Positions 9,947 through 59,666 of a stretch of DNA of 64,000 nt are shown here, piece by piece. Within the stretch, counting starts at the first letter, position 1. Every line of letters begins with the position of its first letter. The notes beneath the pieces are model-generated. The model was not told where the DNA came from, did no database searches, and saw only the letters and a list, made by a program, of their open reading frames with translations. The stretch is taken from contig JAUXYJ010000103.1 in NCBI GenBank assembly GCA_030694465.1, positions 155,057 to 219,056 on the forward strand. The letters are read 5' to 3'. This stretch comes from Deltaproteobacteria bacterium (lineage in GTDB: Bacteria > Myxococcota_A > Polyangia > Polyangiales > Ga0077539). The position numbers and the translations under genes are program-made.

Positions 9947-10024
9947 CGGTGTTCTCACTTTGCGGGCCTGAGAGCCTACGGCACTCTACACATGGCGCGC
10001 TCGGCGATGTGTAGCGATGATCCG

Positions 10025-19034: not shown

Positions 19035-19072
19035 AGTGCCTTGAGGACATCACACGGTGATAGCTTCTCTGT

Positions 19073-32897: not shown

Positions 32898-35083
32898 GCG
32901 CCCTCGGCCTCGCGTGCGGTGTCACTCGCTGCGCGCACACCGATGGTGCCCGTGGCGTTGGCGTCCATCGCGGCGAGTTTGGCTGCGAGCTCGGGGTCTT
33001 CGTTGGCGACCTTGCGCAGCTCTTCGGGGAGCGCGCCCAGCATTTTGCGCGCCGAATCGGTCAGGCGGTCCGTGTCAACCTGTGCAAACTGCATGAGCTC
33101 ACGCAAGAGCGGAAACGCCGCGCCCGCCTCGAGGATCGTGCGCAACACAGGCGACGCCGCGCCGAACGCGCCCTGTCCGTTGCCCGACCCGGCGACGTCG
33201 CCGGATGAGCCACCCTGGCCATTGTTCATCTGCAAGACCTTGATCTCGCGGATGGCGTGCGCCGGGGCCATGAGCTCTTTGGTCACGTCGGGCAGCACGG
33301 TGAGCGCCTTGAGCACGATGTCACGCAGCAAGAACTTGCTGGCCACTTGGTTCTCGGCGTCGACCAACGCTTTGCGTGCGTCGGCCTCGGCGGCGCCCTT
33401 TTGCCGCGTCGCTTCAGCGAGCGCGATGAGCGCTTCGGCCTCGAGCTGCGCAGCTTTTGCCCGCGCCTCTGCAGTGATTCTCACGCGGTCTGCGTCTGCT
33501 TGGGCCTCGGCACGGACCACATTGGCCGCCGAGTCCGCGGCGACCATGAGCGCGCGCGCAGAGCCCTCTGCCTCGGCGATGTGGCCCTCGGCTTGGGCAC
33601 GCTTCGCCGCTGCAGCGCCGTCGGCTTCGGCTTTGACGGCAGCCGCGCTGGTCTCTGCGCCAAGCTTGCGTACAAAGGCTTCGCGCTCGGCCGCGATACG
33701 CGCTTGCTGAGCGCTCTCTTCGGATTTAATCACCGCGATCTCTTTCTCGCGGCGGGCCTGTGCGGTGGCTTCGACCGTGAGAATTCCCTGGGTTGCCTGC
33801 GTTCGGTCCGCTTCGGCTTGGAGCTTGAGCGCCTCGGCGCGGGCCTCGACCTCGAGCGCCTGGGTCACCGCGATTTGCTTGGACACACGCGCGGTCTCGA
33901 TCACGCGCTGCTTCTCGATTTCGGCAGCCTCGATGGTCTTGACCTTCTCGATCTCGGCGGTCTCGATGGTCTTGCGCTTCTCGACCTCGGCGTTCTCGAC
34001 GGTGCGCTGCTTCTCGATCATCGCGGCCTCGACCTCGCGCTCTTTGGCGATCACCGCGACCTGCTGCTGCTTCTCGGACGAAATCTGCGCCTCGCGGGTC
34101 GCAGCGACGCGCTGAGCCTCTGCGATTTGCAGTGCTTTTTGCTGCTCGATCTTCGCGTTCTGCACAGCCTGCTCTTTCGAGAGCGCGGCCATCTCTTGGT
34201 CGCGCTGCTGCTCGTACACGGCCTTGGCGGTCGCGGTCGATTGCGTCGCGGTGTACTCTTGCACACGGCGTGTCTGGTCACTCTCGTTGCGGTTGTCCGC
34301 TTCGATCAGCTCAAGCGCGCGACGATGCGCGGTGACGTTTTGCTCTTGGATCGCGACGTCGGCTTCGCGCTCGATCAAGTTGGTCTTGCGCGCGTTGGCC
34401 TTCACCTGCTCGGTGATGGTCATCAGGCCCTCGGAGTCAAAGAAGTCCGACGCGTTGAGCTCGGCGATCGACACCATTGCGAGGGCCGTGATTGACACGT
34501 TCTCGAGGGTAAGACCGTTCTTTTTGAGCTCTTCAGAGAGGGCCTTCTGGATGCTCTCGGCGAAGTCTTTGCGGTTGGTGTGCAGCTCCATAAACGAGCT
34601 GTTGGCCGCGACAGAGCGCAGGGCGTCCGTGAGCTTTCCCTCGATGAGATCGCCGATCGCGCCTTCGTCGAGGTTGCGCTCACCAAACGAGCGCGCCGCG
34701 GTGAGCACGTCGTCTTCGAGCGGCTCGACCTTGATGTAGAGCTCGGTCGTGACGGTCGCGCGGATCTTGTCGCGCGTCACCAGGGCCATGTTGCCCGAGC
34801 GATCGACCGTGAGTTTATGCGAGCGAAGTGAGACTCGCATGAGCTGATGCAAGATCGGAAACACGGTGACACCGCCGCCGATCACCACTTTGTTTCCGCC
34901 TGCGCCCGTACGCACCAGCGCCTCGTCAGCGCCACAGCGACGATAAAACCGCGCGATGGTGACGAGCAACAGCGTGAACACAAAGATCACCGCCGAAGCG
35001 ATCAACGCCGAGACAATAAACTGCGGCTGCTCCCAAAAGCGAAGCGCCGAACCCTGTGCGACAAAGACCTCTAGCTGATTCAT
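32894..35083 (-). CDS. flotillin-like SPFH/band-7 protein (YqiK-type) with long EA-rich coiled coil
   Basis: N-terminal TM, PHB domain (…KLTVDRSGNMALVTRDKIRATVTTELYIKV…) and an extended EA/Q-rich repeat region typical of flotillins. Confidence 0.85.
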   Translation of the reverse strand: MNQLEVFVAQGSALRFWEQPQFIVSALIASAVIFVFTLLLVTIARFYRRCGADEALVRTGAGGNKVVIGGGVTVFPILHQLMRVSLRSHKLTVDRSGNMALVTRDKIRATVTTELYIKVEPLEDDVLTAARSFGERNLDEGAIGDLIEGKLTDALRSVAANSSFMELHTNRKDFAESIQKALSEELKKNGLTLENVSITALAMVSIAELNASDFFDSEGLMTITEQVKANARKTNLIEREADVAIQEQNVTAHRRALELIEADNRNESDQTRRVQEYTATQSTATAKAVYEQQRDQEMAALSKEQAVQNAKIEQQKALQIAEAQRVAATREAQISSEKQQQVAVIAKEREVEAAMIEKQRTVENAEVEKRKTIETAEIEKVKTIEAAEIEKQRVIETARVSKQIAVTQALEVEARAEALKLQAEADRTQATQGILTVEATAQARREKEIAVIKSEESAQQARIAAEREAFVRKLGAETSAAAVKAEADGAAAAKRAQAEGHIAEAEGSARALMVAADSAANVVRAEAQADADRVRITAEARAKAAQLEAEALIALAEATRQKGAAEADARKALVDAENQVASKFLLRDIVLKALTVLPDVTKELMAPAHAIREIKVLQMNNGQGGSSGDVAGSGNGQGAFGAASPVLRTILEAGAAFPLLRELMQFAQVDTDRLTDSARKMLGALPEELRKVANEDPELAAKLAAMDANATGTIGVRAASDTAREAEGA
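33187..33206. repeat. GC palindrome copy 3 (GACCCGGCGACGTCGCCGGA) inside flotillin CDS
   Basis: Identical 20-mer to copy 1. It encodes SGDVAGSG in the Gly-rich C-terminal region of the flotillin. Confidence 0.8.
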
Positions 35084-35200
35084 GGTGTCCCGACCTCCCG
35101 ATGTTTGTGACCAAGTTGTGCTGTGAATTTGCTGACCAACGCGACCATCGCGCGGACACCAGAGACACAGCTACAGGCTCGGCACAGACTGCGATACTTG

Positions 35201-35941
35201 CTATGTGCGACGACGACCGGGCAGCACGCTGTCGAGCGCGCTGACGACCAGTCGACCTTGCTCTTGCTCGACCACAACGACCTCGCGTCCCTCTTCAATG
35301 GGCACGCTGTCATGGGTCACGCACACCACACGGACGACGTGCCCGATGCGGTCTTTGATCCGAACCTCGCCAAACTCGCGGTCGACCCTGCTTGAGATCA
35401 CCACGCCGCTGCTTCCCACGAGCCCCTCGCGCGAGGTCGCCTCTTGGCCCTCGGTCGAGAACACTTTGCCGGCGATCGCCGCCATCGCGCGGGTACACAG
35501 CGCACCGATCACCAGCGCGATCGGGATCACCCAGACCATGGACCACAGCGGCGGCCGCGCGAACCCATAGACCAGCGTGTTGACCGAGAGCCCCGCGACG
35601 GCAAACGCCACCGCGAAGGTCTGCAGCAAGAAGGTCATCGGCGCGCGACCAAAGCCCAACAAGCCCACGAGCGAGACCGTGGCTTCGCCCTGCACGCTCA
35701 CGGCGTGGTGCCCTTCGCTCTCGCTCTCACCGTCCGCGTCTCCATCGCCGTCGGCGTCGGTGTCCACGCTGTCCGGGACTCCGTCGCCATCGCTGTCGTG
35801 GCCGTCGGCGTCGCCATGGTCACCGCCCGCGAGCAAGCCCAGGACGCCTGAGACCTGCAAGAGAGCTACACCTACCGCGATCGCGACCGCGGTGAGATAA
35901 GGCACGTTTGCCCAAGCGAGCCATGCAGACAAAACGGTCAT
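35201..35941 (-). CDS. NfeD-like (YqiJ-type) membrane protein with C-terminal OB-fold
   Basis: N-terminal TM helices, an acidic/His-rich loop (DHGDADGHDSDGDG), and a C-terminal beta-rich segment (GEVRIKDRIGHVVRVVCV…VVVVEQEQGRLVV) typical of NfeD partners of flotillins. Confidence 0.7.
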   Translation of the reverse strand: MTVLSAWLAWANVPYLTAVAIAVGVALLQVSGVLGLLAGGDHGDADGHDSDGDGVPDSVDTDADGDGDADGESESEGHHAVSVQGEATVSLVGLLGFGRAPMTFLLQTFAVAFAVAGLSVNTLVYGFARPPLWSMVWVIPIALVIGALCTRAMAAIAGKVFSTEGQEATSREGLVGSSGVVISSRVDREFGEVRIKDRIGHVVRVVCVTHDSVPIEEGREVVVVEQEQGRLVVSALDSVLPGRRRT

Positions 35942-36291
35942 CAAGAACGGCCCTTGCGTGCCACACGCTCTCGCCCAAAAAGACGAGATGCGCGGCCGCG
36001 AAGTGAGAGAATGCGGGTGGGAAACCTCCGCAAAAAAGTGAGCGCCACGATGGGTGCAGATCCGCGTTGGCTCCGTCAACGGCAGATCGGTCACGCATCA
36101 TCCGATTTTGCGCGGCTGTCACCGAAGGCTTTCTGGCGAAAAGTTGCCTTGGAGCGCGGTTCTGTAGCTTAGCTCGGCCAGATTCGGTCACCTGGACGCG
36201 CCCCACGCGGCGCCGCGGGTGTCCCCCTCTGCCACGAGAGCGGGTTGTTTTGTAGTCCAACACAGCCGCCTCGTGTCATCCGACGGAGCGA

Positions 36292-43812: not shown

Positions 43813-44075
43813 AGGGGATGCAGGCTTGGTGAGATGCGTTGCGCAGAGTGTACGCGTGGGGCCTTCACTTCACTGCACGACGTGTGGGTTCTCACACGAT
43901 CTGTCACGCACATGCGAACGTCGCATACCGCACTCAACCGCGGATGTCTGGTAGCGTCTAACAACATCTACGCTTGTTTTCGCACGAGTCGCTAAGACGC
44001 TGCATTCTGCTGCGCTGAGCACTCGTTCGAGCCAAAGTTTCTATTTTGCTTGTCCACTCTCGCCAGGAGCGATCC

Positions 44076-46739
44076 ATGACGCCTACTCCATTCCTCAAGA
44101 AACCCCTGCGCTGGGGGCTGACTTTTTCGATCCTCGCGCTGGCCACAGTTGCAGGCTGTAGCGCCGAACCAGAGCCCATGGGCGGCGACGGCGGAGGTGA
44201 CAGCGGCCTCGGCAACGACGTGTCTTCGATGGACATCGTGAGCCCCACAGACATCGTGGTTGCGCCCGACGAAGGGCAGGACAGCGGAAGCAGCAACGAC
44301 GCCGCCGCCGATGGGGCCGCGGACGGTGCAGCCGATGTGGTCGTCGATGCGCCCCCGCCGCGATGCGCACCCGGTGTGGACAGCGACATGGACGGCATCC
44401 CCAACGACGAAGAGTGTCGCTTGGGGCTCGACCCCTTCAACCCTGACTCGGACATGGACGGCATCCCCGATGGGATCGAAGCGCGCTACCCACGGATCTG
44501 CGTCGCCACGATGCCAAGCGCGCAACGCAGACCCCCACAGCGCTGCAACGTCGACGACGAGTGCCGCACCGGCGAGCGCTGCAACGGGCTCAACCCGTTG
44601 TCACCGGACTCGGACGGCGACGGCGTCCCCGACCGCGAAGAAGACACGAACTTCGACGGTGTAATCGACCCCATGCGCGGCGAGAGCGACCCGCGCTTGG
44701 GAGACACCGACGGAGACGGCACCGGAGATGCCATGGCGGGCATCGCGATCTGTCGCCCCTCGGGCTTGGCGACCGTGGTGCAAAACGGCATCCCGGCCAG
44801 CCCTGTGCAGGTGGGCTATGCGCCGACGTGGACCAACGCAGGGCGCGTCACAGGGACGCTCATGCGTGGCGCGATCGTGCTCAACGACATGACCGCCGGC
44901 GTCGCGGCGGTGACCATGACCATGCCCTCGATGGGCGATGTGCGCACAGAGTCCACGCGGCTTGAGGCACAAATGGTCGCAGCCCTCGGCGCAGGGACAA
45001 CGGGCGTTCTCGTGGGCCGCGCGCTCACGACGCACGAAATGAACCCTGCGATCACCTCGACCTACCGTGTCGCGCGGGCGACCACCGCGAGCGCTCTCCG
45101 TGACGCGCTGATCATGCCCATGGTCGGCGCGGCCGCGCCGGTGCCCGCCGCAGCGATTGGCATGTCCACGCAGTTCTACGTAGACGTCACCGTGGTGCGT
45201 CGCACGATGGGCACGGCGGCAAACTTCAACGACGTGCTCATCGCGGTCTCGCCGAGCGCTTCGTACGACAACCCGATGCTCACCACGGCCATTCGGTCCA
45301 TCGATTTGGTCAACAGCACGGCGACCGCGCAGAGCGATCGCGGCCTTGGCTTTAAGTGCCAGACCTTCGTCGCAGCGGCAGCTCCCTCGGTGGACTTCTT
45401 GTGGACCGTGGACACCTCGGGCTCGATGGGTCCGCATCAGACGCGCTTGGGCAACACGGCCACCGCTTTCTTCTCACGCATGGCCGCGGCCGGAATCGAC
45501 TTTCGCGTCGGTGTGATCCAAGCCGGCTCAGCCGTCGCAGGCCCTAACCTCGCGACCTTCAACTGGATCGCGGGCTCGGACGCCATGGGCGCCAGGCGCT
45601 TGTGCGAAGAGGTCACCTCGGCGGGCCTCGGCCGCTGCCCGACGTCTCCGACCGACACGCTCAGCCCGTTTCCGTTTGCGGGTGGCCAAGAAGAGCCCAC
45701 CGCGGCGGCGATCTTGACCCACCGCGCGTTTACGCAGCTCGCCCCGGCGACCAACCCACGGCGCATCCGTGCGGGCGCGCAGTTTGTCACATTTCACGTG
45801 ACCGACGAGCCAGGGTCTAACGACTTTACCCGCTATTTCTCTGCCAATCGTGATCCACAGAACATGATGCCTTGGGGCGCGCTCTACAACTCGACGTCGC
45901 TCAACAACATCATCGATTACTTTCGGCGAAATTCAATCCTGACCTTTGGTCTTTTACCCGTCAACGCCAACCGCTGCGACATCTACAGCGTCGCCGATTT
46001 GCCCCGCTGCGTGGTCGAAGGAAACCGCGGCGCGGTCATCCCGATCGCCACCGCGACAGACCCCGAAATCGCCGCAGCGATGTCTCGCATCGTCGACGCG
46101 ATCGCGGGCGCTTCGAGCCAGTTTCGGCTCACCTCGACGCCCATCACCAGCACGCTCAAAGTGCGCGTCCGCGGGATGGATGTTCCGCGCTCGCGCTCAG
46201 AGGGCTTTGACTACGACTCGGTGTCCAACGCGGTCGTGTTCTACGGTGCGCGCTTTCGTCCTGCGCGTGGCAACGAGGTCGTGCTCTCGTACCGCGTCTG
46301 GCAGCCCTGCCCGAGCGCTGGTGGCATGTGCGTAACCGACTCCGAGTGCTGCCAGCCTCACGTCTGCACCGGCGGCCGTTGTCTGCCGCCCTGCACCACC
46401 CTGGGCGCAATGTGCATGCGCAACGAAGACTGCTGCTCGCCCAACATCTGCACCAGCGGACGCTGCGCCCCGCCCACCACGTGTCGCCCTGTCGGCGAGA
46501 TGTGCATGCGCAACGAAGACTGCTGCTCGCCCAACTCGTGCACCGGCGGCGTGTGCACCCCTCCGCCGCCCTGCATGCCCATCGCAGGCATGTGCCGCAC
46601 CAACGCGGACTGCTGCGACAACAACTGCGTCGGTGGCCGCTGCGCGCCTCCTCCGTGCCGCATGGTCGGTGACAGCTGCCGCTCGGCCGCGGACTGCTGC
46701 GACCGTAGCTGCATCGGCAACGTCTGCGCGCCAGGCTGA
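44076..46739 (+). CDS. lipoprotein with thrombospondin type-3 Ca-binding repeats, VWA domain and six C-terminal Cys-rich repeats
   Basis: Lipobox LALATVAGCS after ATG 44076. It has D-x-D-x-DG-x-x-D repeats (DSDMDGIPNDEE, DSDGDGVPDREED, DTDGDGTGD). The MIDAS motif DTSGSM lies in a VWA-like region. The C-terminus has 6× C-x5-CC-x3-C-x3-C modules (MCMRNEDCCSPNICTSGRCAPP). Confidence 0.75.
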   Translation: MTPTPFLKKPLRWGLTFSILALATVAGCSAEPEPMGGDGGGDSGLGNDVSSMDIVSPTDIVVAPDEGQDSGSSNDAAADGAADGAADVVVDAPPPRCAPGVDSDMDGIPNDEECRLGLDPFNPDSDMDGIPDGIEARYPRICVATMPSAQRRPPQRCNVDDECRTGERCNGLNPLSPDSDGDGVPDREEDTNFDGVIDPMRGESDPRLGDTDGDGTGDAMAGIAICRPSGLATVVQNGIPASPVQVGYAPTWTNAGRVTGTLMRGAIVLNDMTAGVAAVTMTMPSMGDVRTESTRLEAQMVAALGAGTTGVLVGRALTTHEMNPAITSTYRVARATTASALRDALIMPMVGAAAPVPAAAIGMSTQFYVDVTVVRRTMGTAANFNDVLIAVSPSASYDNPMLTTAIRSIDLVNSTATAQSDRGLGFKCQTFVAAAAPSVDFLWTVDTSGSMGPHQTRLGNTATAFFSRMAAAGIDFRVGVIQAGSAVAGPNLATFNWIAGSDAMGARRLCEEVTSAGLGRCPTSPTDTLSPFPFAGGQEEPTAAAILTHRAFTQLAPATNPRRIRAGAQFVTFHVTDEPGSNDFTRYFSANRDPQNMMPWGALYNSTSLNNIIDYFRRNSILTFGLLPVNANRCDIYSVADLPRCVVEGNRGAVIPIATATDPEIAAAMSRIVDAIAGASSQFRLTSTPITSTLKVRVRGMDVPRSRSEGFDYDSVSNAVVFYGARFRPARGNEVVLSYRVWQPCPSAGGMCVTDSECCQPHVCTGGRCLPPCTTLGAMCMRNEDCCSPNICTSGRCAPPTTCRPVGEMCMRNEDCCSPNSCTGGVCTPPPPCMPIAGMCRTNADCCDNNCVGGRCAPPPCRMVGDSCRSAADCCDRSCIGNVCAPG

Positions 46740-47182: not shown

Positions 47183-48148
47183 CTAGGACAGAGGGCTCTG
47201 ACCGGCTTCGCCCGCGAGGAGATAGAGCACAGCCATGCGCACAGCGACGCCAGCTTCGACTTGGTCGAGGACCACGCTCTGGGGGCCGTCAGCGATCTCG
47301 GGGTCGATCTCGACGCCCCGGTTCATCGGGCCGGGGTGCATCACGATCGCGTCGGGTTGGGCGAGCTTTAAGATCTTGTGGTTGAGCCCAAAGTGTCGCG
47401 AATACTCTCGCGCAGTCGGAAACAACACCTCGCCCATTCGCTCGCGCTGGATCCGCAACATCATCAGGACATCGGCGCCTTCAGCTGCACGCGCGAAGTT
47501 GTCAAACACTTCGACCCCCAGGCGCTCGATGCCCGGCGGGATCATCGTGCGCGGGCCGCACACACGCACGGTCGCTCCCAAGCGCGTGAGCAAGTGCGCG
47601 TTGCTGCGCGCGACGCGCGAGTGCGTGAGATCGCCCGTGATGGTCACGACAAGCCCGGCGAGCCTGCCCTTGGCGCGGCGGATGGTGAAAGCGTCCAAGA
47701 GCGCCTGGGTGGGGTGCTCGTGCGTTCCGTCGCCTGCGTTGACAACCGAGGCGCGGGTGCGCTTGGCGATAAAGTGCGGCGCGCCGCTTGAGCCATGGCG
47801 CATCACGATCACGTCGGGCTGCATGGCCTCGAGGTTCTTGACCGTATCTAAGAGCGTCTCGCCCTTGGACACACTCGAGCCCGACGAGGACACGTTGACC
47901 ACGTCGGCGCTGAGGCGTTTTCCGGCGATTTCAAACGAGGTGCGCGTCCGGGTGCTGGCCTCAAAGAACAGGTTGATCACGGTCTTGCCACGCAGCGTTG
48001 GGACCTTGCGGATCTTGCGACGCGAGACATCAAAGAAGACCTCGGCGGTGTCCAAAAACTGCACAATCCGCTGGGTCTCGAGCTTCTCGATGTCGAGCAA
48101 ATGCCGGTGCGTAGCGCTCATGGCAGCAACACTCTCTCGTGTGATCAC
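47183..48148 (-). CDS. pyrB: aspartate carbamoyltransferase catalytic subunit
   Basis: STRTR carbamoyl-phosphate motif, HPTQALLD, and HP.P motif. Full length. Confidence 0.95.
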
Positions 48149-48717
48149 GCGCCGTCATCCGCATCGGATTCGATCACCAACGCGCAGTCCGCGCGGTCGT
48201 CCGAGTCAAGCACGACGTCTACGCGGTCGTCGTACGCGGTGTGTACTTCGCGCCCGACGTACTGGGCCGCGATGGGGAGCTCACGATGGCCGCGATCGAT
48301 CAGGCAACAGAGCTGAATGCTCCGTGGGCGGCCATAGTCCATCAGCGCGTCGATGGCTGCGCGCACGGTTCGCCCGGTAAAGAGCACATCGTCGATGAGC
48401 AACACGACCCGATCGTCCAACGGAAAGTGCAGGTCACTTCGGCCCACAATCGGCGCCGCAAGAGATGTCCCGACGTCGTCCCGGTAGAGATTAATGTCCA
48501 CGCTTCCTACCGGGACATCCAAGCCCTCGAGCTCGCGCAACAGCACCCGGAGGCGGTACGCGAGGGGCACGCCTCCGCGGCGAATGCCGACGAGACACAG
48601 GGCCTTGGCCCCACGGTTTTGCTCGGTGATTTCACCGGCCATTCGACGGAGGGCGCGAGAGATCTCGTCCGCATCCATCACTACGCGCTCTGCCATGGGC
48701 TTCATTCGGTGCGACAC
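48145..48717 (-). CDS. pyrR: bifunctional pyrimidine operon regulator / uracil phosphoribosyltransferase PyrR
   Basis: PRPP-binding motif [17 protein letters not shown]. The size and ATGA overlap with pyrB indicate a pyrR–pyrB operon. Confidence 0.9.
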
Positions 48718-48900
48718 AAGAGACTAGTCGCTTCGGATCACAGCGTCGAGAACCGTGCAAACCTCGGGCGCCGTGACTCGCGTCCACATCGTTCGGGGTT
48801 GTGTGCTTCTGCGCAGAACAGCATGCGAGTTGTTCACTTGTTTGTTGACCCCGAGCCTAAGGTCTACTCATGCTTTCGCCGAAAGTGAGGGTGCGACGGG

Positions 48901-50523
48901 ATGTCTGCCCGCGTCCTAGTCGTCGATGACAGCGCAACCATCCGAAGGCTCGTTCGGACGGTGCTCGAAGAATCTGGCTACGAAGTCAGCACCGCGCTCG
49001 ATGGGCAAATGGCGCTGGATCTTCTGCGCCGTGAGTCTTTTGACCTGCTGCTCATCGACTTTGTCATGCCCAGACTCAATGGCTATCAGCTCGCGATGGC
49101 CGTGCGCGCCATGCCCTCGATCGCGTCCATCCCGATCATCCTGATGAGCGCAAAGGCCGACACCATCGGCGCCAAATTTTTGCAGCAGACGCGCTCGTCC
49201 CAGCGCATCTCAAAGCCCTTCGAGCCCAACGCGCTGTTGACCGTGATCGAAGAGACCCTGCGCCAGCGCACTTCGCAGCCGCAGAGGCCCCAGACGCTCG
49301 TGAGCCATGAGCTAGGCGTCGGTCAGTCCATCGCGCCGCCACCAGCGTTTGCGCCCGAGCGCAGCGCACGCACGCAGGCGCCCATCGCGGCCAACGCGCC
49401 CTCTCCGTTTGCGAGCGCGACCTCGGCGAGCGCGACCCCCAACCGCACCGCCGACACGCTCTTTGTGCGCCCACGGACCGACACGGTTCTTGAGAGCCTG
49501 CCGAGCTTCGCCGCACCCACCTCTGCGCTCGACGACCAAGAGAACACGTTTGTAGGTCAGCTGCCGTTTGGGTTTGAAATGGACCCGTCGCTCGACGACG
49601 ACCCGGTCGAGAACACCGACCTGCGCGCGGTGATTCAAGACGAGTCTCCGCCGCGCTTGTTGGTCCGCAAGCTCCTCTCGATGATCGCAGGGCAAGGCTA
49701 CGACGCGCTCGATCACCTCGAAGATCCGCTGGTCGATTCGCTCACTGACGACGAACTCAGAGACCTCTTGGGCTTGGTCCGCGAGGCCCTCGGAGACCGC
49801 GAGCTCGTCGCAGGACTCCAAGGCCGCATCGACTCTGTTCCGCTCGCTGAGGTGATGCAGTTGCTGCGATTTCAGCAGCAGTCGGGCGTGCTGGTCGTGC
49901 GCCGTGGGGGCGCCATCGTCGACCTCTGTTTTCACCGCGGGGCCATTGATCTGGCGCTGGCCCGCAACGTTTCGTCTGAGTTTTTGCTGGGTCGATACGC
50001 GGTCGCCGGCGGAGTGATCTCGCGCGAAGAGCTCGACGAGATTCTCAACAATGGCCTCGACGAGCGGCTCGGCGCGTACCTCTTGCGCTCAGGGCGGCTC
50101 GACGCCGAAGGGCTCGAGCGACTGCTCACCCGACAAGCGTCCGAGATTCTCTACGAGGTGTGCCGCTGGCGCGACGGGAGCTTTGAGTTCTTCGCGGGGC
50201 TGAGGCCCACCGAGGCCCAAGAAGCTGCGCTCGGTCTGCCTGTCGAAATGCTCGTGCTTGAGGGCTTTCGGCGCGTCGATGAGTGGAGTCAAATCGAGCA
50301 AGAGCTTCACTCGTTCGATGATGTATTTACGCCCGACTACTCGGTCATCGAGAACGTCGGGCTCGCGAGGCTCTCCCCAAGTGAGCGGCGCGTGCTGGAT
50401 GCCCTCGACGGAGCGCGCACCGTCAACGACCTCATCGCCGCCACCGCGATGAACAGCTTCGACGCATGCAAGACACTCTTTCAGCTCCGCCGCGCGCGCC
50501 TGATCCGCCGGAGAAACGCGTGA
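48901..50523 (+). CDS. response regulator: N-terminal receiver domain, long disordered P/A/S linker, C-terminal DUF4388 (PATAN-like) domain
   Basis: REC motifs VLVVDDS…D(L)LLIDFVMP…(phospho-acceptor Asp)…KP. The central ~180 aa are low complexity. The C-terminus PLAEVMQLLRFQQQSGVLVVRRGG…LCFHRGAIDLA fits the DUF4388 pattern. Confidence 0.8.
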   Translation: MSARVLVVDDSATIRRLVRTVLEESGYEVSTALDGQMALDLLRRESFDLLLIDFVMPRLNGYQLAMAVRAMPSIASIPIILMSAKADTIGAKFLQQTRSSQRISKPFEPNALLTVIEETLRQRTSQPQRPQTLVSHELGVGQSIAPPPAFAPERSARTQAPIAANAPSPFASATSASATPNRTADTLFVRPRTDTVLESLPSFAAPTSALDDQENTFVGQLPFGFEMDPSLDDDPVENTDLRAVIQDESPPRLLVRKLLSMIAGQGYDALDHLEDPLVDSLTDDELRDLLGLVREALGDRELVAGLQGRIDSVPLAEVMQLLRFQQQSGVLVVRRGGAIVDLCFHRGAIDLALARNVSSEFLLGRYAVAGGVISREELDEILNNGLDERLGAYLLRSGRLDAEGLERLLTRQASEILYEVCRWRDGSFEFFAGLRPTEAQEAALGLPVEMLVLEGFRRVDEWSQIEQELHSFDDVFTPDYSVIENVGLARLSPSERRVLDALDGARTVNDLIAATAMNSFDACKTLFQLRRARLIRRRNA

Positions 50524-50906
50524 ACGACGCGACCCCACGCTGGTTTGTCTTCACCCGCGCGCAAACACAATTTGCCCTCTCCGCGCACGCCGTTCGCTGT
50601 GTGCTCCCCTCGATCCGCAGCACGCCGTATCCCACGCCGCTGCCGCTGATGCTCTCGCTCTTTGCCTACGACGGCCGCATCGTCTCGCTTGTCGACCCGC
50701 AGTCAGACTCAAGCGAGTCCATCACGGACGTGCACGTCTGCCACGCTGTCCTCGTGCACAGCGAGCTCGGGGATGTCGCGTTTGCGCTCGACCACACCGA
50801 GGGCTTTGCGAACACGCTCACCACCGAGCAGCGCCTCGAACCCGAGGCCATCTTGCGCATGCTCCGCTGGTCGATTCGCCGCGGAGAGCGCATCTCCGCC
50901 CCCTAA
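50520..50906 (+). CDS. CheW-like coupling protein (divergent)
   Basis: The GTG at 50520 overlaps the upstream stop (GTGA). The segment WFVFTRAQTQFALSAHAVRCVLP…LFAYDGRIVSLVD resembles CheW beta-strands. Confidence 0.55.
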   Translation: MNDATPRWFVFTRAQTQFALSAHAVRCVLPSIRSTPYPTPLPLMLSLFAYDGRIVSLVDPQSDSSESITDVHVCHAVLVHSELGDVAFALDHTEGFANTLTTEQRLEPEAILRMLRWSIRRGERISAP

Positions 50907-50981
50907 CGATCCCCCAAAGGGCCGGCACGTCCCACGTGGCCCCACCCACCTCTTTTGCACCCCCCCCATTGAGCACGCATC

Positions 50982-51911
50982 ATGGACGACCTTCGACTGC
51001 TCTTGCACCAACTTGCAGACCGCCTCGCCGATCGCGCATCGGTCGCTTTGCCCGCAATCGAGCCCGTCCCCGAAGCTCTGCCGAGCGCGGCGGAGCTGAG
51101 CGAAGAGCACGTGTTCTTGAGAGCGTTCTTCGACGCGGTGGTCGAGGGCGACCTCTCGGCTCGCTTGCCCGCCGCCAGCGACCCACTGGTCCAACGCGGC
51201 GAAGAGACCCTCGAGCGACTGCGCACGCTCTTGCGCAGCGCGCGCGAGTCAACCGAAGGCGTCGGGCTCCGCGCAGACACCATCGTCGACGCGATTGAGC
51301 ATGCAGCTTCGGCTGGAAATCAACAGCGAATCATCCTCGATCACGCCATGGACGAGATGCGCCCGCTCTTGGTGAGGCTCAACGATTTGCAGCACGAGAC
51401 CGCGGAGATCACGACGAGCTGCGACCGCATCGCGCTGCTCGCGCTCAACACCGGGATTGAGGGGCTGCGTGTAGGCGGCGAGGTTGCTCGCGCGCTCTCG
51501 ACGCTCGGAGACGAAATCCGCCGACTTGCCGTGCGCTCTTCGCTCACCGCGCGAGAGCTGGGCGAGGCGCTCAAGAGCACAGGCGAGTCGGCCAAACGCG
51601 GATCGACGAACATCGAAGAGGCCCGCGCAATGCTCAGGCATATCGCAGACGAAGTGACCCGCGCGGCCTCATCTGCCGAGTCGGTTCGCATCGCAGACGA
51701 GACCCTCCGCGACGCGACCGCGGGCTTTCGCGTGCTCGACATCGAGAGCGAAGAGCTGCTCCTTCGGCTGGATGACACAGCCACGCGGTTGGCCGACGAG
51801 CTCGTGCGGGCCGGCAAGCTCGCGCAGCGCAATGTGGCGGGCAGCGAAGACGTACGCGCCGCCGTCGCACGCATTCAGAAGCTCGTCGCTGGGGAGCACA
51901 ACGCGCGGTGA
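50982..51911 (+). CDS. soluble methyl-accepting chemotaxis protein (signalling domain only, no TM/sensor)
   Basis: The highly conserved MCP hairpin tip region (IALLALNTGIEGLRVGGEVARALSTLGDEIRRLAVRS) sits within a ~300-aa coiled coil. No hydrophobic segments. Confidence 0.75.
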   Translation: MDDLRLLLHQLADRLADRASVALPAIEPVPEALPSAAELSEEHVFLRAFFDAVVEGDLSARLPAASDPLVQRGEETLERLRTLLRSARESTEGVGLRADTIVDAIEHAASAGNQQRIILDHAMDEMRPLLVRLNDLQHETAEITTSCDRIALLALNTGIEGLRVGGEVARALSTLGDEIRRLAVRSSLTARELGEALKSTGESAKRGSTNIEEARAMLRHIADEVTRAASSAESVRIADETLRDATAGFRVLDIESEELLLRLDDTATRLADELVRAGKLAQRNVAGSEDVRAAVARIQKLVAGEHNAR

Positions 51912-54004
51912 GCGGCGACTCGTTGCCGCTTGACCCAGAGCTCCAAGAGCTCTTTCGCGCAGAGCTCGAGCGTCGCGCCAGCGCCGTCTTGGCCATCGAG
52001 CATGACCCCCGCAGCGCCCTGCGCAATTTGCACGCGCTCCGGGGCGCCGCGGCCATGATGGGCGCAGCGAGTCTGGCTGCCTATTTGCTGCAACTCGAGA
52101 AGAGCATCCAGCGCGGCGAGAGCCTGAGCGCCGAAGAGATCCGCCACAGCCTCATCAGCGCGATCACGCAGACTGGGCTCGACGCCAGCCCGCTACGCGA
52201 CGCGCAGCCGTCACGCGAGCTCACGAGCAGCACTCCCCCAGCGCGCATGCGCGGCTCGGACCCGCCCGAGCGCGGCATCACTGACAGCGCAGCGTCGTGG
52301 CAACAACAGGGCGTCAAACTAGAGATTCGCCAGTTCTTTTTGTCTGAGTCACGACAACGCGTAGAGCAGTTTTCGCGTGCGATCGCGCGCATCTCGCGCG
52401 ATGAGAGCGCAGAGAGCTTTACCGAGCCTCTGCGCGAGGCGTTTAGGCACGTCCATGCGATCAAGGGCAGCGCGTCGACGGTGGGCTTTGATGCCATCGC
52501 CTCGGCCACACACGCGCTCGAGAGCGCCCTCGCGAAGCTGCTCAAAGAGCTGGTCGTGCCGAGCACACAACAGCTCGCAGCGCTCTCGGATTGCGCCACG
52601 CTCTTGGGCGCGATGCTGACCTCACCCGAGCGCTCAGACAGCAGCGTGACCGAGCTCCGCGCTGTGCTTCGCCAAGCACATTTGCTCACTGAGACCGCGG
52701 CAGCGTATGCGCTTGGACACACGGCCCCTGCGGTCGAGCGTGCGCCCGACGCGGTGCGCGTCCCGTCGGCCGCCCTGCACGGGCTCGAAGCACGCATGAA
52801 CGACGTCTCCACGGTGACCGATCGGCTCGAGGCGGTCTTGAGCCGCAGCAGCGAGCACGCGCGGGCCCTCGACGACCTCTCCAGCGGGCTGGACGAAGGC
52901 ATCCGGCGCCTAGGGCCTGCTCGCCCTTGGGGCGTCCCTGCCGAGGTCCTCGAACGATTTCACAGCATGGCCAGGATCCTTCGTGAGTCCGCGATCTCGC
53001 TTGACACCGAGACCCTCGCGGCGACCAAAGAGGTCGAATCCCTCACGTCCATGACCTCGGAGCTACGGCAAGAGCTGCAACGGATCAGCATGACCACCGT
53101 GCAGTGGCTCTACGAGCGTGTTGCCCCCGTCGCGCGCGCAGCAGCGACCACTGTGGGCGTCGAGCTGCGCATCGAGCGCACGGGCGAAGACGTCGAGCTC
53201 GCGCGCAACATCGCCGAGCGCTTGGTCGAACCCATGGCGCAGCTCGTGCGCAACGCGGTGGTCCATGGCATCGAAGCGCCGACGCGCCGCATGGCCCTCG
53301 GAAAACCCGTCCGCGGTCGCATCGCGCTCAGAGCCGTGCGGCTGGGCGAAGTGCTGCGGCTTACCATCGAAGACGACGGCAGCGGCGTGGACACCGACGC
53401 AGTCCGGCGCGCCGGCGAACGCGACGGTCTCATTGACCGCTCGGCCTCGCACGACGAGCTGTTATCCCTTCTGTTTCATGCGGGATTCTCAACGCGCAGC
53501 CGCGCGGACACCAGCGCAGGGCGAGGCGTTGGGCTCGACATCGTGCAACGTGAGCTCATCGAGCTCGGAGGCAGCGTCTCGATCCACTCGACGAAGGGAC
53601 GCGGCACCGAGTTTGTACTGGAGCTCCCTGCACGCGCGGGGATGCAGCGCGTCCTGGTCGTGGGAGCCGGCAACCGGCGATTTGCGATCCCGATTGACAA
53701 CGTGATCGAAGTTCGCCTGGCAAAAACCGACGAAAACTGCATCTCGCTCCTCGCCTGGCTCGGACTGGACGACACCTACGGGTCGTCGAACAGCGTCGTA
53801 GAGCTCTCGATCCGCAGCCACCGTATCTCGCGCAGCGTCGATTGGGTCGAGCGCGCACGAGAGGTCATTGTGCGCCCGCTCCCTGCGTGGATCGCGGGCA
53901 TTGATTCGTGGTCTGGCGCGATCGTTGAACCCGACGGGGGGATCTTGCTTGTGCTGGACACCGACCGACTCGCGGCCCAGCACGAAGGCAACTTTATCGG
54001 GTAA
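51908..54004 (+). CDS. cheA: chemotaxis histidine kinase CheA with two Hpt domains and C-terminal CheW-like domain
   Basis: The GTG at 51908 overlaps the MCP stop (GTGA). The Hpt domains are marked by NLHALRGAAAMMG and FRHVHAIKGSASTVGFD. HATPase_c motifs (N-box NAVVHGIE, G1 EDDGSGVD, G2 GRGVGLD.V) follow, then the CheW-like domain VLVVGAGNRRFAIPIDNVIEV. No receiver domain. Confidence 0.9.
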   Translation: MSGDSLPLDPELQELFRAELERRASAVLAIEHDPRSALRNLHALRGAAAMMGAASLAAYLLQLEKSIQRGESLSAEEIRHSLISAITQTGLDASPLRDAQPSRELTSSTPPARMRGSDPPERGITDSAASWQQQGVKLEIRQFFLSESRQRVEQFSRAIARISRDESAESFTEPLREAFRHVHAIKGSASTVGFDAIASATHALESALAKLLKELVVPSTQQLAALSDCATLLGAMLTSPERSDSSVTELRAVLRQAHLLTETAAAYALGHTAPAVERAPDAVRVPSAALHGLEARMNDVSTVTDRLEAVLSRSSEHARALDDLSSGLDEGIRRLGPARPWGVPAEVLERFHSMARILRESAISLDTETLAATKEVESLTSMTSELRQELQRISMTTVQWLYERVAPVARAAATTVGVELRIERTGEDVELARNIAERLVEPMAQLVRNAVVHGIEAPTRRMALGKPVRGRIALRAVRLGEVLRLTIEDDGSGVDTDAVRRAGERDGLIDRSASHDELLSLLFHAGFSTRSRADTSAGRGVGLDIVQRELIELGGSVSIHSTKGRGTEFVLELPARAGMQRVLVVGAGNRRFAIPIDNVIEVRLAKTDENCISLLAWLGLDDTYGSSNSVVELSIRSHRISRSVDWVERAREVIVRPLPAWIAGIDSWSGAIVEPDGGILLVLDTDRLAAQHEGNFIG

Positions 54005-54016
54005 TTCACTGGGGAT

Positions 54017-56362
54017 TTAGCGTCTGGGGCAATGGGACGTCGCCGGCCGCAAGAGCTCACTCATGCGCGAGCGGAGCTGCTCGGCGACCGCGGACTCTTG
54101 GCTGTACACATTGCGCCGCTCGGCCGCGTCGCGATCGAGCTGAAACAGCTCCCAGCTGTTGCGTGTCGCGTCGTGGAGGAGCTTCCACGGGGGCGCTACG
54201 AGCGCGAGGCTCGTCGGACGGAGATCTCCACCGGGGGACACATCTGCCGCGAGGGCACCACGCCACGGGATCTGCGCTTCGGGTGCGCTCTGAAGCAGCG
54301 GGACCAGCGACCTCGCGGGCGAGCGCAGCGTGGGCGTGCGGCCTACGTACGCGAGCGCGGTGGGATACAAATCCATCAACGAGACGAGGCTGCGACGCGG
54401 CCCCGGACGAATCCCCGGACCCCGCACTACGAGCACCACCCGCAGCGCCTCTTCGTGCGCGTCAAACGCGTGGTAATTTACACCGTGTTCGTTAAACGCT
54501 TCGCCGTGATCGCTGAACACCACGACGATGAGCGGGCGAGCCTCTGCGATGCGGTTGGCCGTGCGAAACAAGCGAGGCAAGAGCGAGTCTACGTGGGCGA
54601 TCTCTTCGTCGTAACGGTCGATCGGTTCGTGGCCGAAATCCCGAGGCTCTGTGCGATCGGTGTAGGGCTCGTGCGGATCGACCATGTGCACCCACAAGAA
54701 GAAGGGCCGCGCCTGACGACCCGCGTTGAGGAGCCAATCGCGCGCGTGGTCTACGGTCACGTACGCGGCATCTTTGAACCCGTTGCCCTGCTCGACCGTG
54801 TCAAATCCCTGAAAAAATCCAGCCGTTAGCGCGAAGTAGCTCGTGTTGGTGTAGGCCCCTGTCGCGTAGTTTTCTACGCGGAGCACCTCGGCGAGCATCT
54901 CGTTCGCGTCACGCAATGGCGGAAACTGCGGGTCGCGTCCCCAGCACAGGCTCGCCGGAGGGCGCCCTGAGAACGCGCTCGCGAACGCGCGGATGGTCTG
55001 CGGCGCCGTGGTGTACGCCTGATCAAATCGCGCGGCGTTCTGTGCGAATTCTCTGAGATTGGGCGTGGTGTCACGCGCGTATCCGTAGAGCGATGTGTGA
55101 TCCGGGCGCATCGTGTCGATCGAGATAAACAGCACCGAGGGGTGGTTGCTCGCGGGAGCGACGAAGGGCGCAGGGCGATCCTCGGGCGCGGGCACAGCGT
55201 CGAGCCCTGTGCAGTTTTCGTCCCGTCCATTGCCTGGAATATCTCGCGCGAGTGGGTTGATCCGAGGATCGCGGTCGTTGCAATCGCCCCCGCCAAAGTA
55301 CCGGCCGTAGCCATCATGGTCCGCGTCAGTCCAGCGCTGTAGCGTCGGAAAAATCTTTGAAGCGAGCAGCGACCGCTGAGTGATCGCGTCGGTAATCCAT
55401 GGGTTTTTTCCGAGCGTCATCGCGCTCAACCCAAACGCGACGACCACTGTGCTCGCCAGCACCCACGTCACCGAACGCGCGATCGTGGGTCGAGCTCTCT
55501 GCACCCACCGCAGCGCGAGCCCATAGCCCACCAAGCCCATCAGCGACAACCCGAGCGGGCGGAGGTCCAGACGACTTAGAACGTTTCGTCCTGCAAAAAC
55601 AGTGACCAATAGAGACAAGCCTGCGAGCGCTGCCACCACCAATCCCACTGCGCCTGGGCTCGCCCAGCGACGTCGCCGGGACAACGGGAGCTCGAGCATC
55701 ATGGCCGCGACCATGGCCGCGATCACCCCAAGCCCGAGCGACGCCACGCCCGCCGAGACGATCAGAATCGCAGCCAGCATGGGCGTCCGCACGCTCTGCA
55801 CGATGAGCACAGTGGCCCGCAGCGCGATGACTGCCGCAGTGAGCGTGCCAATCGAGGCCATCACCACACGCAGGGCGCCACGTTGGTCCTCGGCGAACCA
55901 TCGCGCGGGGCCCTCAAGAAAATAGGCACGCGCGCGCTGCACCGAGCCTCGACGAAGCGAAGAGAAAACCGCAATGGCGTGCAAAATCCCTAGCATAGAG
56001 CCCAAGGGGGCGATCGCACCGAGGGCATACGCGAGCAGCCACCCCAGCCCACTCGCGCGACGCTCAAACGCCGAGGTCCGCGCAAAGGCAACGAGTGTGT
56101 CTGTAAGCGCGAGCGCGCACGAGACGCCAAGCGCGGCGCTCACATGGGCCAAGAGCAACACGCGCAGGGTGGGCGGCTCGATCGCAGTGGGCGTCTCGGA
56201 CGACGCGGTCGTGGGAGCAGATGTCACGGTAAATCGCTGGATCGCAGAGAGCTGCGCAGACGCGTTCGACACTAGCGCGAATCGACAGCGCGATGCGTAG
56301 TCATTTGTCGCATCGGTGGGTGCTCTGCGCGGCAACGCGAGTACACTGCCTGCACCTTTCAT
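54017..56362 (-). CDS. membrane-anchored sulfatase-like (alkaline-phosphatase superfamily) hydrolase/transferase
   Basis: At least 8 N-terminal TM helices. C-terminal domain with SIDTMRPDH metal-binding motif and a TTAPQT putative Thr nucleophile region (LtaS/EptA/arylsulfatase-like). The exact start is uncertain. Confidence 0.75.
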   Translation of the reverse strand: MKGAGSVLALPRRAPTDATNDYASRCRFALVSNASAQLSAIQRFTVTSAPTTASSETPTAIEPPTLRVLLLAHVSAALGVSCALALTDTLVAFARTSAFERRASGLGWLLAYALGAIAPLGSMLGILHAIAVFSSLRRGSVQRARAYFLEGPARWFAEDQRGALRVVMASIGTLTAAVIALRATVLIVQSVRTPMLAAILIVSAGVASLGLGVIAAMVAAMMLELPLSRRRRWASPGAVGLVVAALAGLSLLVTVFAGRNVLSRLDLRPLGLSLMGLVGYGLALRWVQRARPTIARSVTWVLASTVVVAFGLSAMTLGKNPWITDAITQRSLLASKIFPTLQRWTDADHDGYGRYFGGGDCNDRDPRINPLARDIPGNGRDENCTGLDAVPAPEDRPAPFVAPASNHPSVLFISIDTMRPDHTSLYGYARDTTPNLREFAQNAARFDQAYTTAPQTIRAFASAFSGRPPASLCWGRDPQFPPLRDANEMLAEVLRVENYATGAYTNTSYFALTAGFFQGFDTVEQGNGFKDAAYVTVDHARDWLLNAGRQARPFFLWVHMVDPHEPYTDRTEPRDFGHEPIDRYDEEIAHVDSLLPRLFRTANRIAEARPLIVVVFSDHGEAFNEHGVNYHAFDAHEEALRVVLVVRGPGIRPGPRRSLVSLMDLYPTALAYVGRTPTLRSPARSLVPLLQSAPEAQIPWRGALAADVSPGGDLRPTSLALVAPPWKLLHDATRNSWELFQLDRDAAERRNVYSQESAVAEQLRSRMSELLRPATSHCPRR

Positions 56363-59057: not shown

Positions 59058-59576
59058 TCAACCCGGCGCGAGCTCACCCGGGATCAACATCATTTCGAGC
59101 ATCGTGACGCGAAACCCAAGCCTCGCGAACAACGCCTGCCCTCCTGCGTTTTGTGCGGCCGTGTGCAAAAGCACCCGCGTCGCGCCCCGCGCACGCATCC
59201 TCTCGACAAACGCCCGCACCAGCGCCTCTCCGACGCCCGCTCGTCGCGCGCGCTCGTCCACAAAGAGGTCGTGCAACACCGCGCTCTCGTCGAGCAACAG
59301 CTCCCAATTGCGCGGCTCACGGCGCCCGAACGCGTAGCCCATCAACGCACTCTGCCCTGCAATTTCGGCCACCAACACGACACTCGCGTCGTTGGCCATC
59401 TCGCCCTGCAGGTAGCGCGCATACCCCTGCTCGATGGACTCTCCCGCGCGCAAAAACCGCGCAGCGTCCCACGCGTGATGGAGCCTCACGAGCTGCGCCG
59501 CGAGCACGCCAAGCTCCGCAAGATCCCCCGCTGTCGCAGGCCGCACACGCACGCTTGTTTCGGTTTGCTCAGTCAT
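59058..59576 (-). CDS. GNAT family N-acetyltransferase
   Basis: Acetyl-CoA-binding motif …RRAGVGEALVRAF…ARGATRVLLHT…. Confidence 0.75.
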   Translation of the reverse strand: MTEQTETSVRVRPATAGDLAELGVLAAQLVRLHHAWDAARFLRAGESIEQGYARYLQGEMANDASVVLVAEIAGQSALMGYAFGRREPRNWELLLDESAVLHDLFVDERARRAGVGEALVRAFVERMRARGATRVLLHTAAQNAGGQALFARLGFRVTMLEMMLIPGELAPG

Positions 59577-59666
59577 GGTTGTCCGCGCACAAAGTAGCAA
59601 CCCCCAGCGTTCGTCGCATTCGAGTGCACAGAGACTCTGCACAATTGCGCTACTCTGCGAGGCGCC

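Follow-up and report, generated by a model that had tools for sequence, protein, structure and literature searches.

The Tax1/Pix system of Synechocystis (PixG-PixH-PixI-PixJ1-PixL), a member of the type IV pilus (Tfp) class, has a PATAN response regulator as its main output. At its N-terminus the kinase PixL carries two Hpt domains, and at its C-terminus a REC domain; the cyanobacterial Tax systems, whose response regulator carries PATAN, lack methylation enzymes and are classed with the type IV pilus systems, for which two CheY-like regulators are typical (PMC11181946). In the Pil-Chp system of Pseudomonas aeruginosa (PilG-PilH-PilI-PilJ-PilK-ChpA-ChpB), the output is type IV pilus polarity (PMC10782961, among other sources). 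We analysed a 64-kb stretch of DNA (hereafter the window; about 65% G+C) from contig JAUXYJ010000103.1 of a Deltaproteobacteria bacterium, in which four genes on the + strand, at positions 48901-54004, encode a response regulator, a CheW-like adaptor, a soluble methyl-accepting chemotaxis protein (MCP) and a CheA-type kinase. With modest confidence, we propose that this module is a self-contained, reduced phosphorelay of the pilus-steering type represented by Pil-Chp and Pix/Tax, including the whole path to a pilus or polarity output that is set out below.

The resemblance to Pix/Tax, which had been pointed out in an earlier note made from the sequence alone, held up. Like Pix, the window module has a PATAN regulator as its presumptive main output, a kinase with two N-terminal Hpt domains and no CheR or CheB, and its order of response regulator, CheW, MCP and CheA matches pixG-(pixH)-pixI-pixJ-pixL; moreover, one related locus retains a full Pix/Pil-like set (see below). 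Unlike the window module, Pix has PATAN ahead of REC in PixG, a second CheY (PixH), a C-terminal REC on its CheA and an MCP with photoreceptor, transmembrane and HAMP parts, whereas the window regulator has a long linker and the window CheW, P3, P5 and MCP tip are much more diverged. With Pil-Chp, the module shares the relative order of response regulator, CheW, MCP and multi-Hpt CheA, whereas Pil-Chp has CheR (PilK), CheB (ChpB), two single-domain response regulators, a CheA receiver, a transmembrane PilJ, nine Hpt-type domains by the count of Berry et al. (eight reported earlier) and no PATAN.

The Frz and Dif systems of Myxococcus xanthus, compared by description, govern motility on surfaces or related functions in a myxobacterium, as the window module may do. 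The MCP of Frz (FrzCD) is cytoplasmic, and CheR and CheB are absent from Dif. Frz differs from the window module by its CheR/CheB (FrzF/FrzG), its CheA-CheY fusion and its outputs FrzZ/FrzX; Dif differs by a membrane MCP, CheY (DifD) and CheC (DifG). PATAN regulators and CheAs with two Hpt domains occur in neither system.

Of the features that mark the Tfp class (Wuichet & Zhulin 2010), the module shows multiple Hpt domains and the gene order RR-(RR)-CheW-MCP-(CheR)-CheA, where RR is a response regulator, but lacks a C-terminal CheA receiver, two CheY-like regulators and a genomic link to type IV pili; of those that mark a chemosensory system in general, it has CheA (its P3 seen in the AlphaFold2 model but not by Pfam), CheW and the MCP hairpin but not CheR/CheB, which most such systems, though not all, possess. 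In the data set of Berry et al. (PMC10782961), 18% of the CheAs carry at least two Hpt domains, and about 93% of these belong to the alternative cellular function (ACF) or Tfp class. A C-terminal REC is found on >90% of multi-Hpt CheAs and on 94% of the multi-Hpt Tfp CheAs; P3, which HMMER frequently fails to detect and which may be elongated, is longest in Tfp CheAs; and HMMER found a CheW domain in each CheA (PMC10782961).

The operon and its relatives

All four open reading frames (ORFs) of the earlier note were found, on the + strand, at the positions given there. They have high third-position G+C in the ORF map, and the same four genes, with the same starts, were called independently on a Logan assembly of identical sequence. 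The features of the operon are as follows.

48718..48900, unstranded: divergent intergenic region between pyrR (- strand) and the response regulator gene; presumed operon promoter region (ORF map)
48901..50523, + strand: response regulator gene, 540 aa, REC - linker - PATAN (Pfam; NCBI match)
50520..50906, + strand: CheW-like adaptor gene, 128 aa, GTG start (Pfam, orthologous ORFs, family profile)
50907..50981, + strand: intergenic gap of 75 nt between the CheW-like and MCP genes, no overlap (sequence)
50982..51911, + strand: soluble sensor-less MCP gene, 309 aa, signalling hairpin only (MCPsignal; Tar alignment)
51908..54004, + strand: CheA-type kinase gene, 698 aa, GTG start (Pfam, NCBIfam, Foldseek)

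The four genes had been described as overlapping, which is correct for two of the three junctions: the sequence GTGA is shared by the response regulator stop and the CheW-like start (50520-50523) and by the MCP stop and the CheA start (51908-51911), whereas the CheW-like and MCP genes are separated by the gap. A Shine-Dalgarno-like element, GAGGG, lies about 13 nt upstream of the ATG at 48901; a sigma-70 consensus scan of the locus returned no promoter match, and promoter/terminator and Rfam scans of the locus gave nothing informative. Upstream of the operon lie the divergent genes pyrR (48145-48717, - strand) and pyrB (47183-48148, - strand), and 12 nt past the CheA stop lies a convergent sulfatase gene (54017-56362), so that the operon ends within the window. 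Pfam scans, which covered every sizeable ORF in the 64 kb, detected no CheR or CheB, nor, among the other sizeable ORFs, any single-domain CheY, pilus or flagellar gene. The earlier claim that cheR and cheB are missing thus stands, and the reservation attached to it, that they might lie in the same operon just outside the part then seen, falls away since the operon is bounded within the window.

Searching with the window CheA revealed a distinct clade of about 30 proteins (550-754 aa), which are 28-49% identical to it over their full length and all come from metagenome-assembled genomes (MAGs) or metagenomes; canonical CheAs match it in the kinase core only. Precomputed Pfam annotations give the clade CheAs only Hpt and HATPase_c, most being without a PF01584 (P5) match, and the NCBI name for them is 'Hpt domain-containing protein'; the name ChpA appears in the JGI automatic annotation of the first non-clade match (P0149) and of one clade member (P0243). 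When species-representative genomes were scanned with the clade alignment and a GPxRPWG pattern, at least about 45 clade members, together with canonical CheA-REC genes of Acidobacteriota, were among the matches listed. The window's own closest relatives were not among these, and the taxonomic spread is therefore a lower bound. The labels on the clade's MAGs are Polyangiaceae, Polyangiales, Labilithrix, Byssovorax and Sorangium and, less specifically, Myxococcota, Myxococcales and (delta)proteobacteria. None of the clade members listed came from a cultured isolate, although we do not claim that isolates lack the family. To estimate its size, we searched 1.84 billion representative proteins with a profile of Hpt2 and P3 and obtained 185 matches at E <= 1e-30. 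About 70 of the top 150, counted as clusters at 50% identity, were family members of 590-840 aa that matched the full profile, and the others were multi-Hpt proteins of 1,200-4,858 aa that matched in the Hpt part only.

We compared the six-frame ORFs of all loci with the proteins of the window and with the Che proteins of E. coli. Of the 36 clade loci whose upstream DNA was long enough, 28 have the order REC-PATAN, CheW-like ORF of about 120 aa, MCP and CheA, and in nearly all of these roughly 28 loci the CheW-like ORF starts 0-12 nt from the response regulator stop, indicating that tight coupling of these two genes is conserved. The closest response regulator homologues are 52-57% identical over their full length, and a 'Myxococcales bacterium' MAG (L002), with a close homologue, has the same pyrB-pyrR / RR-CheW-MCP-CheA arrangement. 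The other eight loci have the MCP-CheA pair with no REC-PATAN or CheW upstream, as was confirmed for L085, showing that the kinase-receptor pair can exist apart from the regulator. Loci named as having only a mini-MCP (about 200-260 aa) and a divergent CheA are L085, L005, L009, L014, L018, L019, L022, L032 and L065. Homologues of E. coli CheR or CheB were not found within 10 kb in any clade locus (about 40 loci); the same search, as a positive control, found both in every complete Acidobacteriota locus. These Acidobacteriota loci (L038-L082) read CheY-CheW-MCP-CheR-CheA(REC)-CheB, an order as in Pil-Chp, with further REC genes downstream. In 24 of 43 clade loci (L004-L075; for example, L085 12131-12613 and L086 12011-12448), CheA is directly followed on the same strand by an ORF for a RimI-like GNAT protein, to which a GNAT of the window (59058-59642, - strand) is weakly similar; it is probably a housekeeping neighbour.

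In the MAG 'Myxococcales bacterium palsa_1104' (L037), five genes, arranged as in Pix/Tax and Pil-Chp, encode in this order a REC-PATAN protein, a single-domain CheY, a CheW of canonical type (E 9e-19), an MCP that has two HAMP domains, and a CheA made up of two Hpt domains, P3, P4, P5 and REC, in which P3 and P5 are detectable by Pfam. Like the window module, this locus has a REC-PATAN protein of the same family, a CheA with two Hpt domains, the same gene order and no CheR/CheB within 10 kb; unlike it, the locus has CheY, a canonical CheW, a HAMP-containing MCP, detectable P3 and P5 and a CheA receiver. Since L037 keeps the full Pix/Pil-like set, the window looks like a reduced derivative and is best read as one from which a second regulator, the receiver of the kinase and the sensor and HAMP parts of the MCP would have been lost. 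Another locus, L017 (REC-PATAN, CheW-like ORF, MCP and a CheA-REC with two Hpt domains), is intermediate. CheW, P5, P3 and the MCP tip appear to have diverged together.

Kinase, receptor and adaptor

The window CheA had been described as a dual-Hpt kinase without a receiver. This agrees with Pfam, which detected two Hpt stretches, HATPase_c (E 2.6e-18) and a weak CheW/P5 match (24.6 bits) but neither REC nor H-kinase_dim in the 698 aa, and with an AlphaFold2 model (mean predicted local distance difference test, pLDDT, 82) with helices at residues 287-335 and 343-394 and linkers at 105-135 (disordered) and 263-282. The NCBIfam CheA equivalog models, whose cutoffs are 950 and 793 bits, gave only 204 and 140 bits. 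In Foldseek, the model matched the P3-P4-P5 structures 3ja6, 1b3q, 6s1k and 8c5v (E 1e-22 to 6e-24), the hairpin being aligned with CheA P3P4 of 4xiv and 1b3q and P4 having template modelling scores of 0.83-0.92 (target-normalised) to P4 of T. maritima, which identifies the protein as a genuine CheA-type kinase with an extended P3 and without P2 or receiver. Its parts are as follows.

51935..52201, + strand: Hpt1, residues 10-98, His42 at 52031-52033; probably accessory (AlphaFold2 helical bundle, pLDDT about 90)
52319..52675, + strand: Hpt2, residues 138-256, His183 at 52454-52456; likely phosphorylation site, P1 equivalent (alignment)
52766..53089, + strand: extended P3-like helical hairpin, residues 287-394 (AlphaFold2; Foldseek)
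52913..52933, + strand: invariant GPxRPWG loop at the turn of the P3 hairpin, residues 336-342, clade signature (alignment)
53099..53632, + strand: P4 ATP-binding kinase domain, residues 398-575 (HATPase_c; Foldseek)
53642..53977, + strand: P5 CheW-like domain, residues 579-690, divergent (Pfam CheW; AlphaFold2 beta-rich)

Among 17 aligned clade members, R180, H183, K186, G187, G193, H202 and E205 of Hpt2 are invariant, as are the N, G1 and G2 box residues of P4 and G336, P337, R339, P340, W341 and G342 of the GPxRPWG loop. By our reading of the E. coli sequence, His183, K186, G187, H202 and E205 correspond to His48, Lys51, Gly52, His67 and Glu70 of P1 in E. coli CheA. In the same alignment, His42 is lost in two members (P0143 and P0145) and Hpt1 is absent from a third (P0139), suggesting that Hpt1 is accessory.

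The MCP scored 37.6 bits with Pfam MCPsignal, just over the cutoff of 34.6. It is collinear with the cytoplasmic domain of Tar only (Tar 267-466) and is without a hydrophobic segment, its maximum 19-residue Kyte-Doolittle hydropathy being 0.99 versus 2.96 for Tar, which confirms the soluble, sensor-less receptor that the earlier note had proposed. A homologue search returned only 26 proteins, all of 297-315 aa, indicating that the whole protein is the hairpin and that it is far from canonical MCPs. The tip of the hairpin is the following feature.

51438..51536, + strand: MCP hairpin tip, residues 153-185, LALNTGIEGLRVGGEVARALSTLGDEIRRLAVR (family motif)

In a MAFFT alignment of 35 family members, the tip has the motif ALNAGLEGARLGExxGRxL, which is one residue longer at the turn than that of Tar (LALNAAVEAARAGEQGRGF) and carries Leu where Tar has the Phe of GRGF. 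A 4-residue deletion beside the tip, given by phmmer, was dropped because the family alignment shows the one-residue insertion only. The C-terminal arm is constant in the 35 members at 143-150 residues, or about 20-21 heptads; this number would be compatible with a class near 40H, and no class is given since the start codons and possible tails are uncertain.

The CheW-like protein of the window itself fell below the Pfam CheW gathering score (19.5 versus 23.5 bits), and a phmmer search with it found its closest orthologue only. The orthologous small ORFs, taken by position in the loci and then tested as a family, were more informative: 15 of 18 match Pfam CheW (best E 1e-16), and the profile of the 18 ORFs matches solved CheW structures in the Protein Data Bank (PDB) at 1e-10. 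Hence the proposed identification as CheW, for which a profile search had been suggested, is not borne out by the window protein alone but is supported by its orthologues and the family profile, on which we regard the protein as a CheW adaptor.

The response regulator

The response regulator is identical to the NCBI protein 'MAG: response regulator [Deltaproteobacteria bacterium]'. Pfam located Response_reg at residues 5-116 (E 4e-23) and, in the C-terminal region, DUF4388 at residues 307-463 (E 4e-25), confirming by profile search the domain that the earlier note had named there. PATAN is the domain DUF4388/PF14332 (Han et al. bioRxiv 10.1101/2021.06.11.447907), and newer Pfam releases, as seen in precomputed annotations, call PF14332 PatA_N; the two were thus correctly equated. 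The protein is divided as follows.

48913..49248, + strand: REC domain, residues 5-116, phospho-acceptor Asp53 at 49057-49059 (Pfam; alignment)
49261..49812, + strand: linker, residues 121-304, about 130 aa low-complexity P/A/S/T-rich, then about 50 aa helical, partly conserved (alignment, composition)
49813..50520, + strand: output region (PATAN), residues 305-540, with an alpha/beta core, a helical insertion and a winged-helix-like C-terminal end
49984..50136, + strand: MshEN_N-like tandem 24-residue motifs within PATAN, residues 362-385 and 389-412

In an alignment of 24 homologues, D9, D10, D53, S83 and K105 of REC are invariant. The linker had been put at about 180 disordered residues, which is roughly right but somewhat too long: residues 121-250 are of low complexity (55% P/A/S/T/Q/G), unconserved and, in the same alignment, long only within the window's own subclade, whereas residues from about 250 to 305 look helical and are partly conserved. 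The likeness to RomR that had been suggested holds for the layout, a REC domain followed by a P/A/S/T-rich linker. Homology to RomR, which was compared by description, was rejected beyond this analogy: RomR-type regulators combine a Pro-rich linker with a Glu-rich C-terminal region, whereas the C-terminal region here is a folded PATAN.

The order of REC and PATAN, which had been thought distinctive, proved to be common: more than 1,285 homologues, mostly of 410-615 aa and mostly from Myxococcota MAGs, have REC followed by PATAN, and some lie outside che operons. The PatA-type order, PATAN at the N-terminus and REC at the C-terminus, was not found, and with REC (5-116) ahead of PATAN (307-463) the window protein should not be filed as PatA-type but with the REC-PATAN family common in Myxococcota. 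At one locus without a che operon (L003, 4582-11365), a REC-PATAN paralogue (P0033, 454 aa) directly follows a 1,802-aa TPR protein. For SgmX, a TPR protein that regulates pili in M. xanthus, co-occurrence with the PATAN proteins MXAN_3211 and MXAN_4965 has been reported (PMC11580455). This forms a circumstantial link between the REC-PATAN family and pili.

A search of the PDB with the sequence of the PATAN region gave no match. The best structural match of the region is NPRL2, a longin domain joined to a winged helix, of the protein-interaction complex GATOR1/SEA. In the predicted structure, PATAN contains a helical insertion (residues 362-412) resembling the N-domains of MshE and PilF. The second of its two tandem motifs (R389-Q412) fits the MshEN motif of Wang et al. 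except at position 11, the first (362-385) is without R1 and Q24, and the spacer between them is 3 residues, versus 5 in MshEN; Q24 of the second motif is invariant in all 67 family members that have the pair. Judged from these motifs, the window regulator may bind cyclic di-GMP (c-di-GMP). Bd2402 of Bdellovibrio bacteriovorus, described as 'REC - MshEN_N - UNK', is reported to bind c-di-GMP tightly and is listed among the experimentally established binders (Wang 2016 and supplement). Like the window regulator, it has an N-terminal REC followed by an MshEN_N-type tandem whose first motif is degenerate (FLG/LLG) and whose second fits well (RIG/RLG ... Q); unlike it, Bd2402 is not reported in a che operon. 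The 'UNK' flank of Bd2402 may be PATAN, which would make Bd2402 a REC-PATAN protein. The more unusual features of the module, namely the MshEN_N-like insertion in PATAN, the insertion at the MCP tip and the CheA clade whose P3 and P5 escape Pfam, had been missed by the earlier note.

Proposed mechanism and alternatives

In the pilus-steering phosphorelay that we propose, the soluble mini-MCP, the small CheW and P5 of CheA would assemble a cytoplasmic signalling complex, and CheA, dimerised via the long P3 hairpin, would autophosphorylate on His183 of Hpt2. The phosphoryl group would then pass to Asp53 of the sole response regulator, freeing or re-localising its C-terminal PATAN, which would contact the type IV pilus motor (PilB/PilC) or the cell-polarity machinery by protein-protein interaction; in cyanobacteria, PATAN of PixE suffices for output and binds both PilB1 and the N-terminus of PilC (Han et al. 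bioRxiv 10.1101/2021.06.11.447907). The domain identities, the invariant catalytic residues, the shared gene order and the lack of CheR/CheB were observed directly, whereas the route of the phosphate, the assembly of the complex and the output are inferred. Since the module has no CheR/CheB, no CheY sink and no receptor ligand domain, input would enter via a partner protein, Hpt1 or the regulator, the candidates being a partner that binds the MCP or the P3 loop, a phosphorelay into Hpt1, and c-di-GMP at the regulator.

Several observations weigh against this proposal. Pilus, Mgl and other motility-regulator genes were found neither in the 64 kb nor as conserved neighbours of the related loci, and the genes adjoining the module are housekeeping genes. 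With no pilus gene nearby, the assignment of the output rests on relatives; of the type IV pilus steering suggested in the earlier note, the likeness to such systems stands, while pilus control itself is drawn from them. The kinase is without the REC found at the C-terminus of >90% of multi-Hpt CheAs, and there is one response regulator, versus typically two in Tfp-class systems. The altered MCP tip and the very divergent CheW and P5 mean that assembly of a canonical array is not assured. The apparent Tfp likeness is one of architecture and gene order, the ChpA names of P0149 and P0243 being indirect evidence only, and the function of PATAN has been studied almost solely in cyanobacteria.

The absence of adjoining motility genes would also suit an unlikely alternative, that the phosphorelay operates as described but serves an alternative cellular function (exopolysaccharide, development or transcription), the winged-helix-like end of PATAN binding DNA or a non-motility target. 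Multi-Hpt CheAs are typical of the ACF class too (PMC10782961), and Han et al. cite a prediction by Makarova et al. that regulators of the PatA type bind DNA. However, Han et al. argue against DNA binding by the PatA type, show membrane localisation and binding to PilB1 and PilC, and report that a known PATAN protein of M. xanthus, SgnC, is tied to S motility; in addition, NPRL2, the best structural match, belongs to a protein-interaction complex.

Slightly less likely, in our opinion, is a module that is not autonomous but co-assembles with, or is controlled by, another che system elsewhere in the genome, from which it would borrow sensor receptors and CheR/CheB, the operon adding only a branch from kinase to PATAN. 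The window MCP has no sensor of its own, the eight loci with MCP and CheA but no regulator or CheW beside them indicate that the parts are usable separately, and our view of the genome is a 64-kb window of a contig of at least 313 kb. Nevertheless, the MCP tip, CheW and P5 have diverged strongly and together from canonical forms, suggesting a private, co-evolving interface rather than mixing; by our reading of the Tar alignment, the MCP arms have no obvious methylation consensus; and genomes of Sorangiineae and Nannocystineae are reported to have only 2-5 MCPs (PMC6194562).

We regard as equally doubtful a dual-input polarity switch, in which MCP, CheW and CheA would form a non-sensing scaffold or timer with a basal phosphorylation flux and the signal would be c-di-GMP at the MshEN_N-like motifs of PATAN, as reported for Bd2402. 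Output at the pilus motor would then need both phosphorylation and c-di-GMP, and the GPxRPWG loop on the long P3 hairpin would offer the regulator a new place to dock, instead of the missing P2.

It is less probable again that motility is controlled through a small Ras-like GTPase polarity switch of the MglA/SofG type rather than PilB/PilC, with the PATAN core as a longin/roadblock-like platform for the GTPase. Homologues of MglA and MglB are often encoded near PATAN genes (Han et al.), and the window contains a Ras/Arf-like GTPase gene (19064-20290); this gene, however, lies 29 kb away and is not conserved beside the module, and direct interaction data for PATAN exist only for PilB1 and PilC (Han et al.). 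Finally, a decaying, non-functional remnant of a complete Pix/Pil-like system, which could account for the CheY, CheA receiver and MCP sensor and HAMP lost relative to L037 and for the weak Pfam scores (CheW 19.5, MCPsignal 37.6 and CheA P5 24.6 bits), is very improbable and already disfavoured, because, both in the window and in dozens of loci that share only 28-57% identity, all four ORFs are intact, every catalytic residue examined is invariant, the clade-specific invariant motifs (GPxRPWG and the MCP tip) indicate selection, and the overlapping start/stop junctions are conserved.

Some other genes of the window were also recorded. The 408-aa ORF at 19064-20290 (+ strand) has weak Ras/Arf/small_GTP matches at residues 57-190 and about 200 further residues without a domain match; it may encode a SofG/MglA-like polarity GTPase. 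An 897-aa protein (44046-46739, + strand), which lies 2 kb upstream of the operon and is separated from it by pyrB and pyrR, partially matches, over residues 180-889, the NCBIfam model of the M. xanthus adventurous-gliding lipoprotein CglD (E 3e-23; 81.6 bits, cutoff 400). A flotillin/SPFH protein (758 aa) adjoins a YqiJ-like membrane protein (32894-36097, - strand), with a small ion-channel-domain protein at 32394-32921, and a 1,237-aa protein (6272-9985, - strand) has a subtilase (S8) domain and FG-GAP repeats.

As far as our literature search reached, the family has no earlier description and is known only from uncultured MAGs of Polyangia type. It is not small, given some 70 clusters among the top 150 profile matches, and it departs from the pattern of Berry et al. 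in that most members show Hpt and HATPase_c only and no CheW domain. Chemosensory systems are for the most part classified and counted by the P3-P4-P5 core of CheA; since P3 and P5 escape Pfam here, surveys may overlook a whole Polyangia family. The dual-input switch, if true, would be a chemosensory class that CheA-based classifiers may miss. The natural series of reduction from L037 through L017 and the window type to the bare MCP-CheA pairs could show which parts of a pilus-type pathway are dispensable, and the family supplies a tractable REC-PATAN protein for studies of the role of PATAN outside cyanobacteria and of possible c-di-GMP binding by the MshEN-like insertion.

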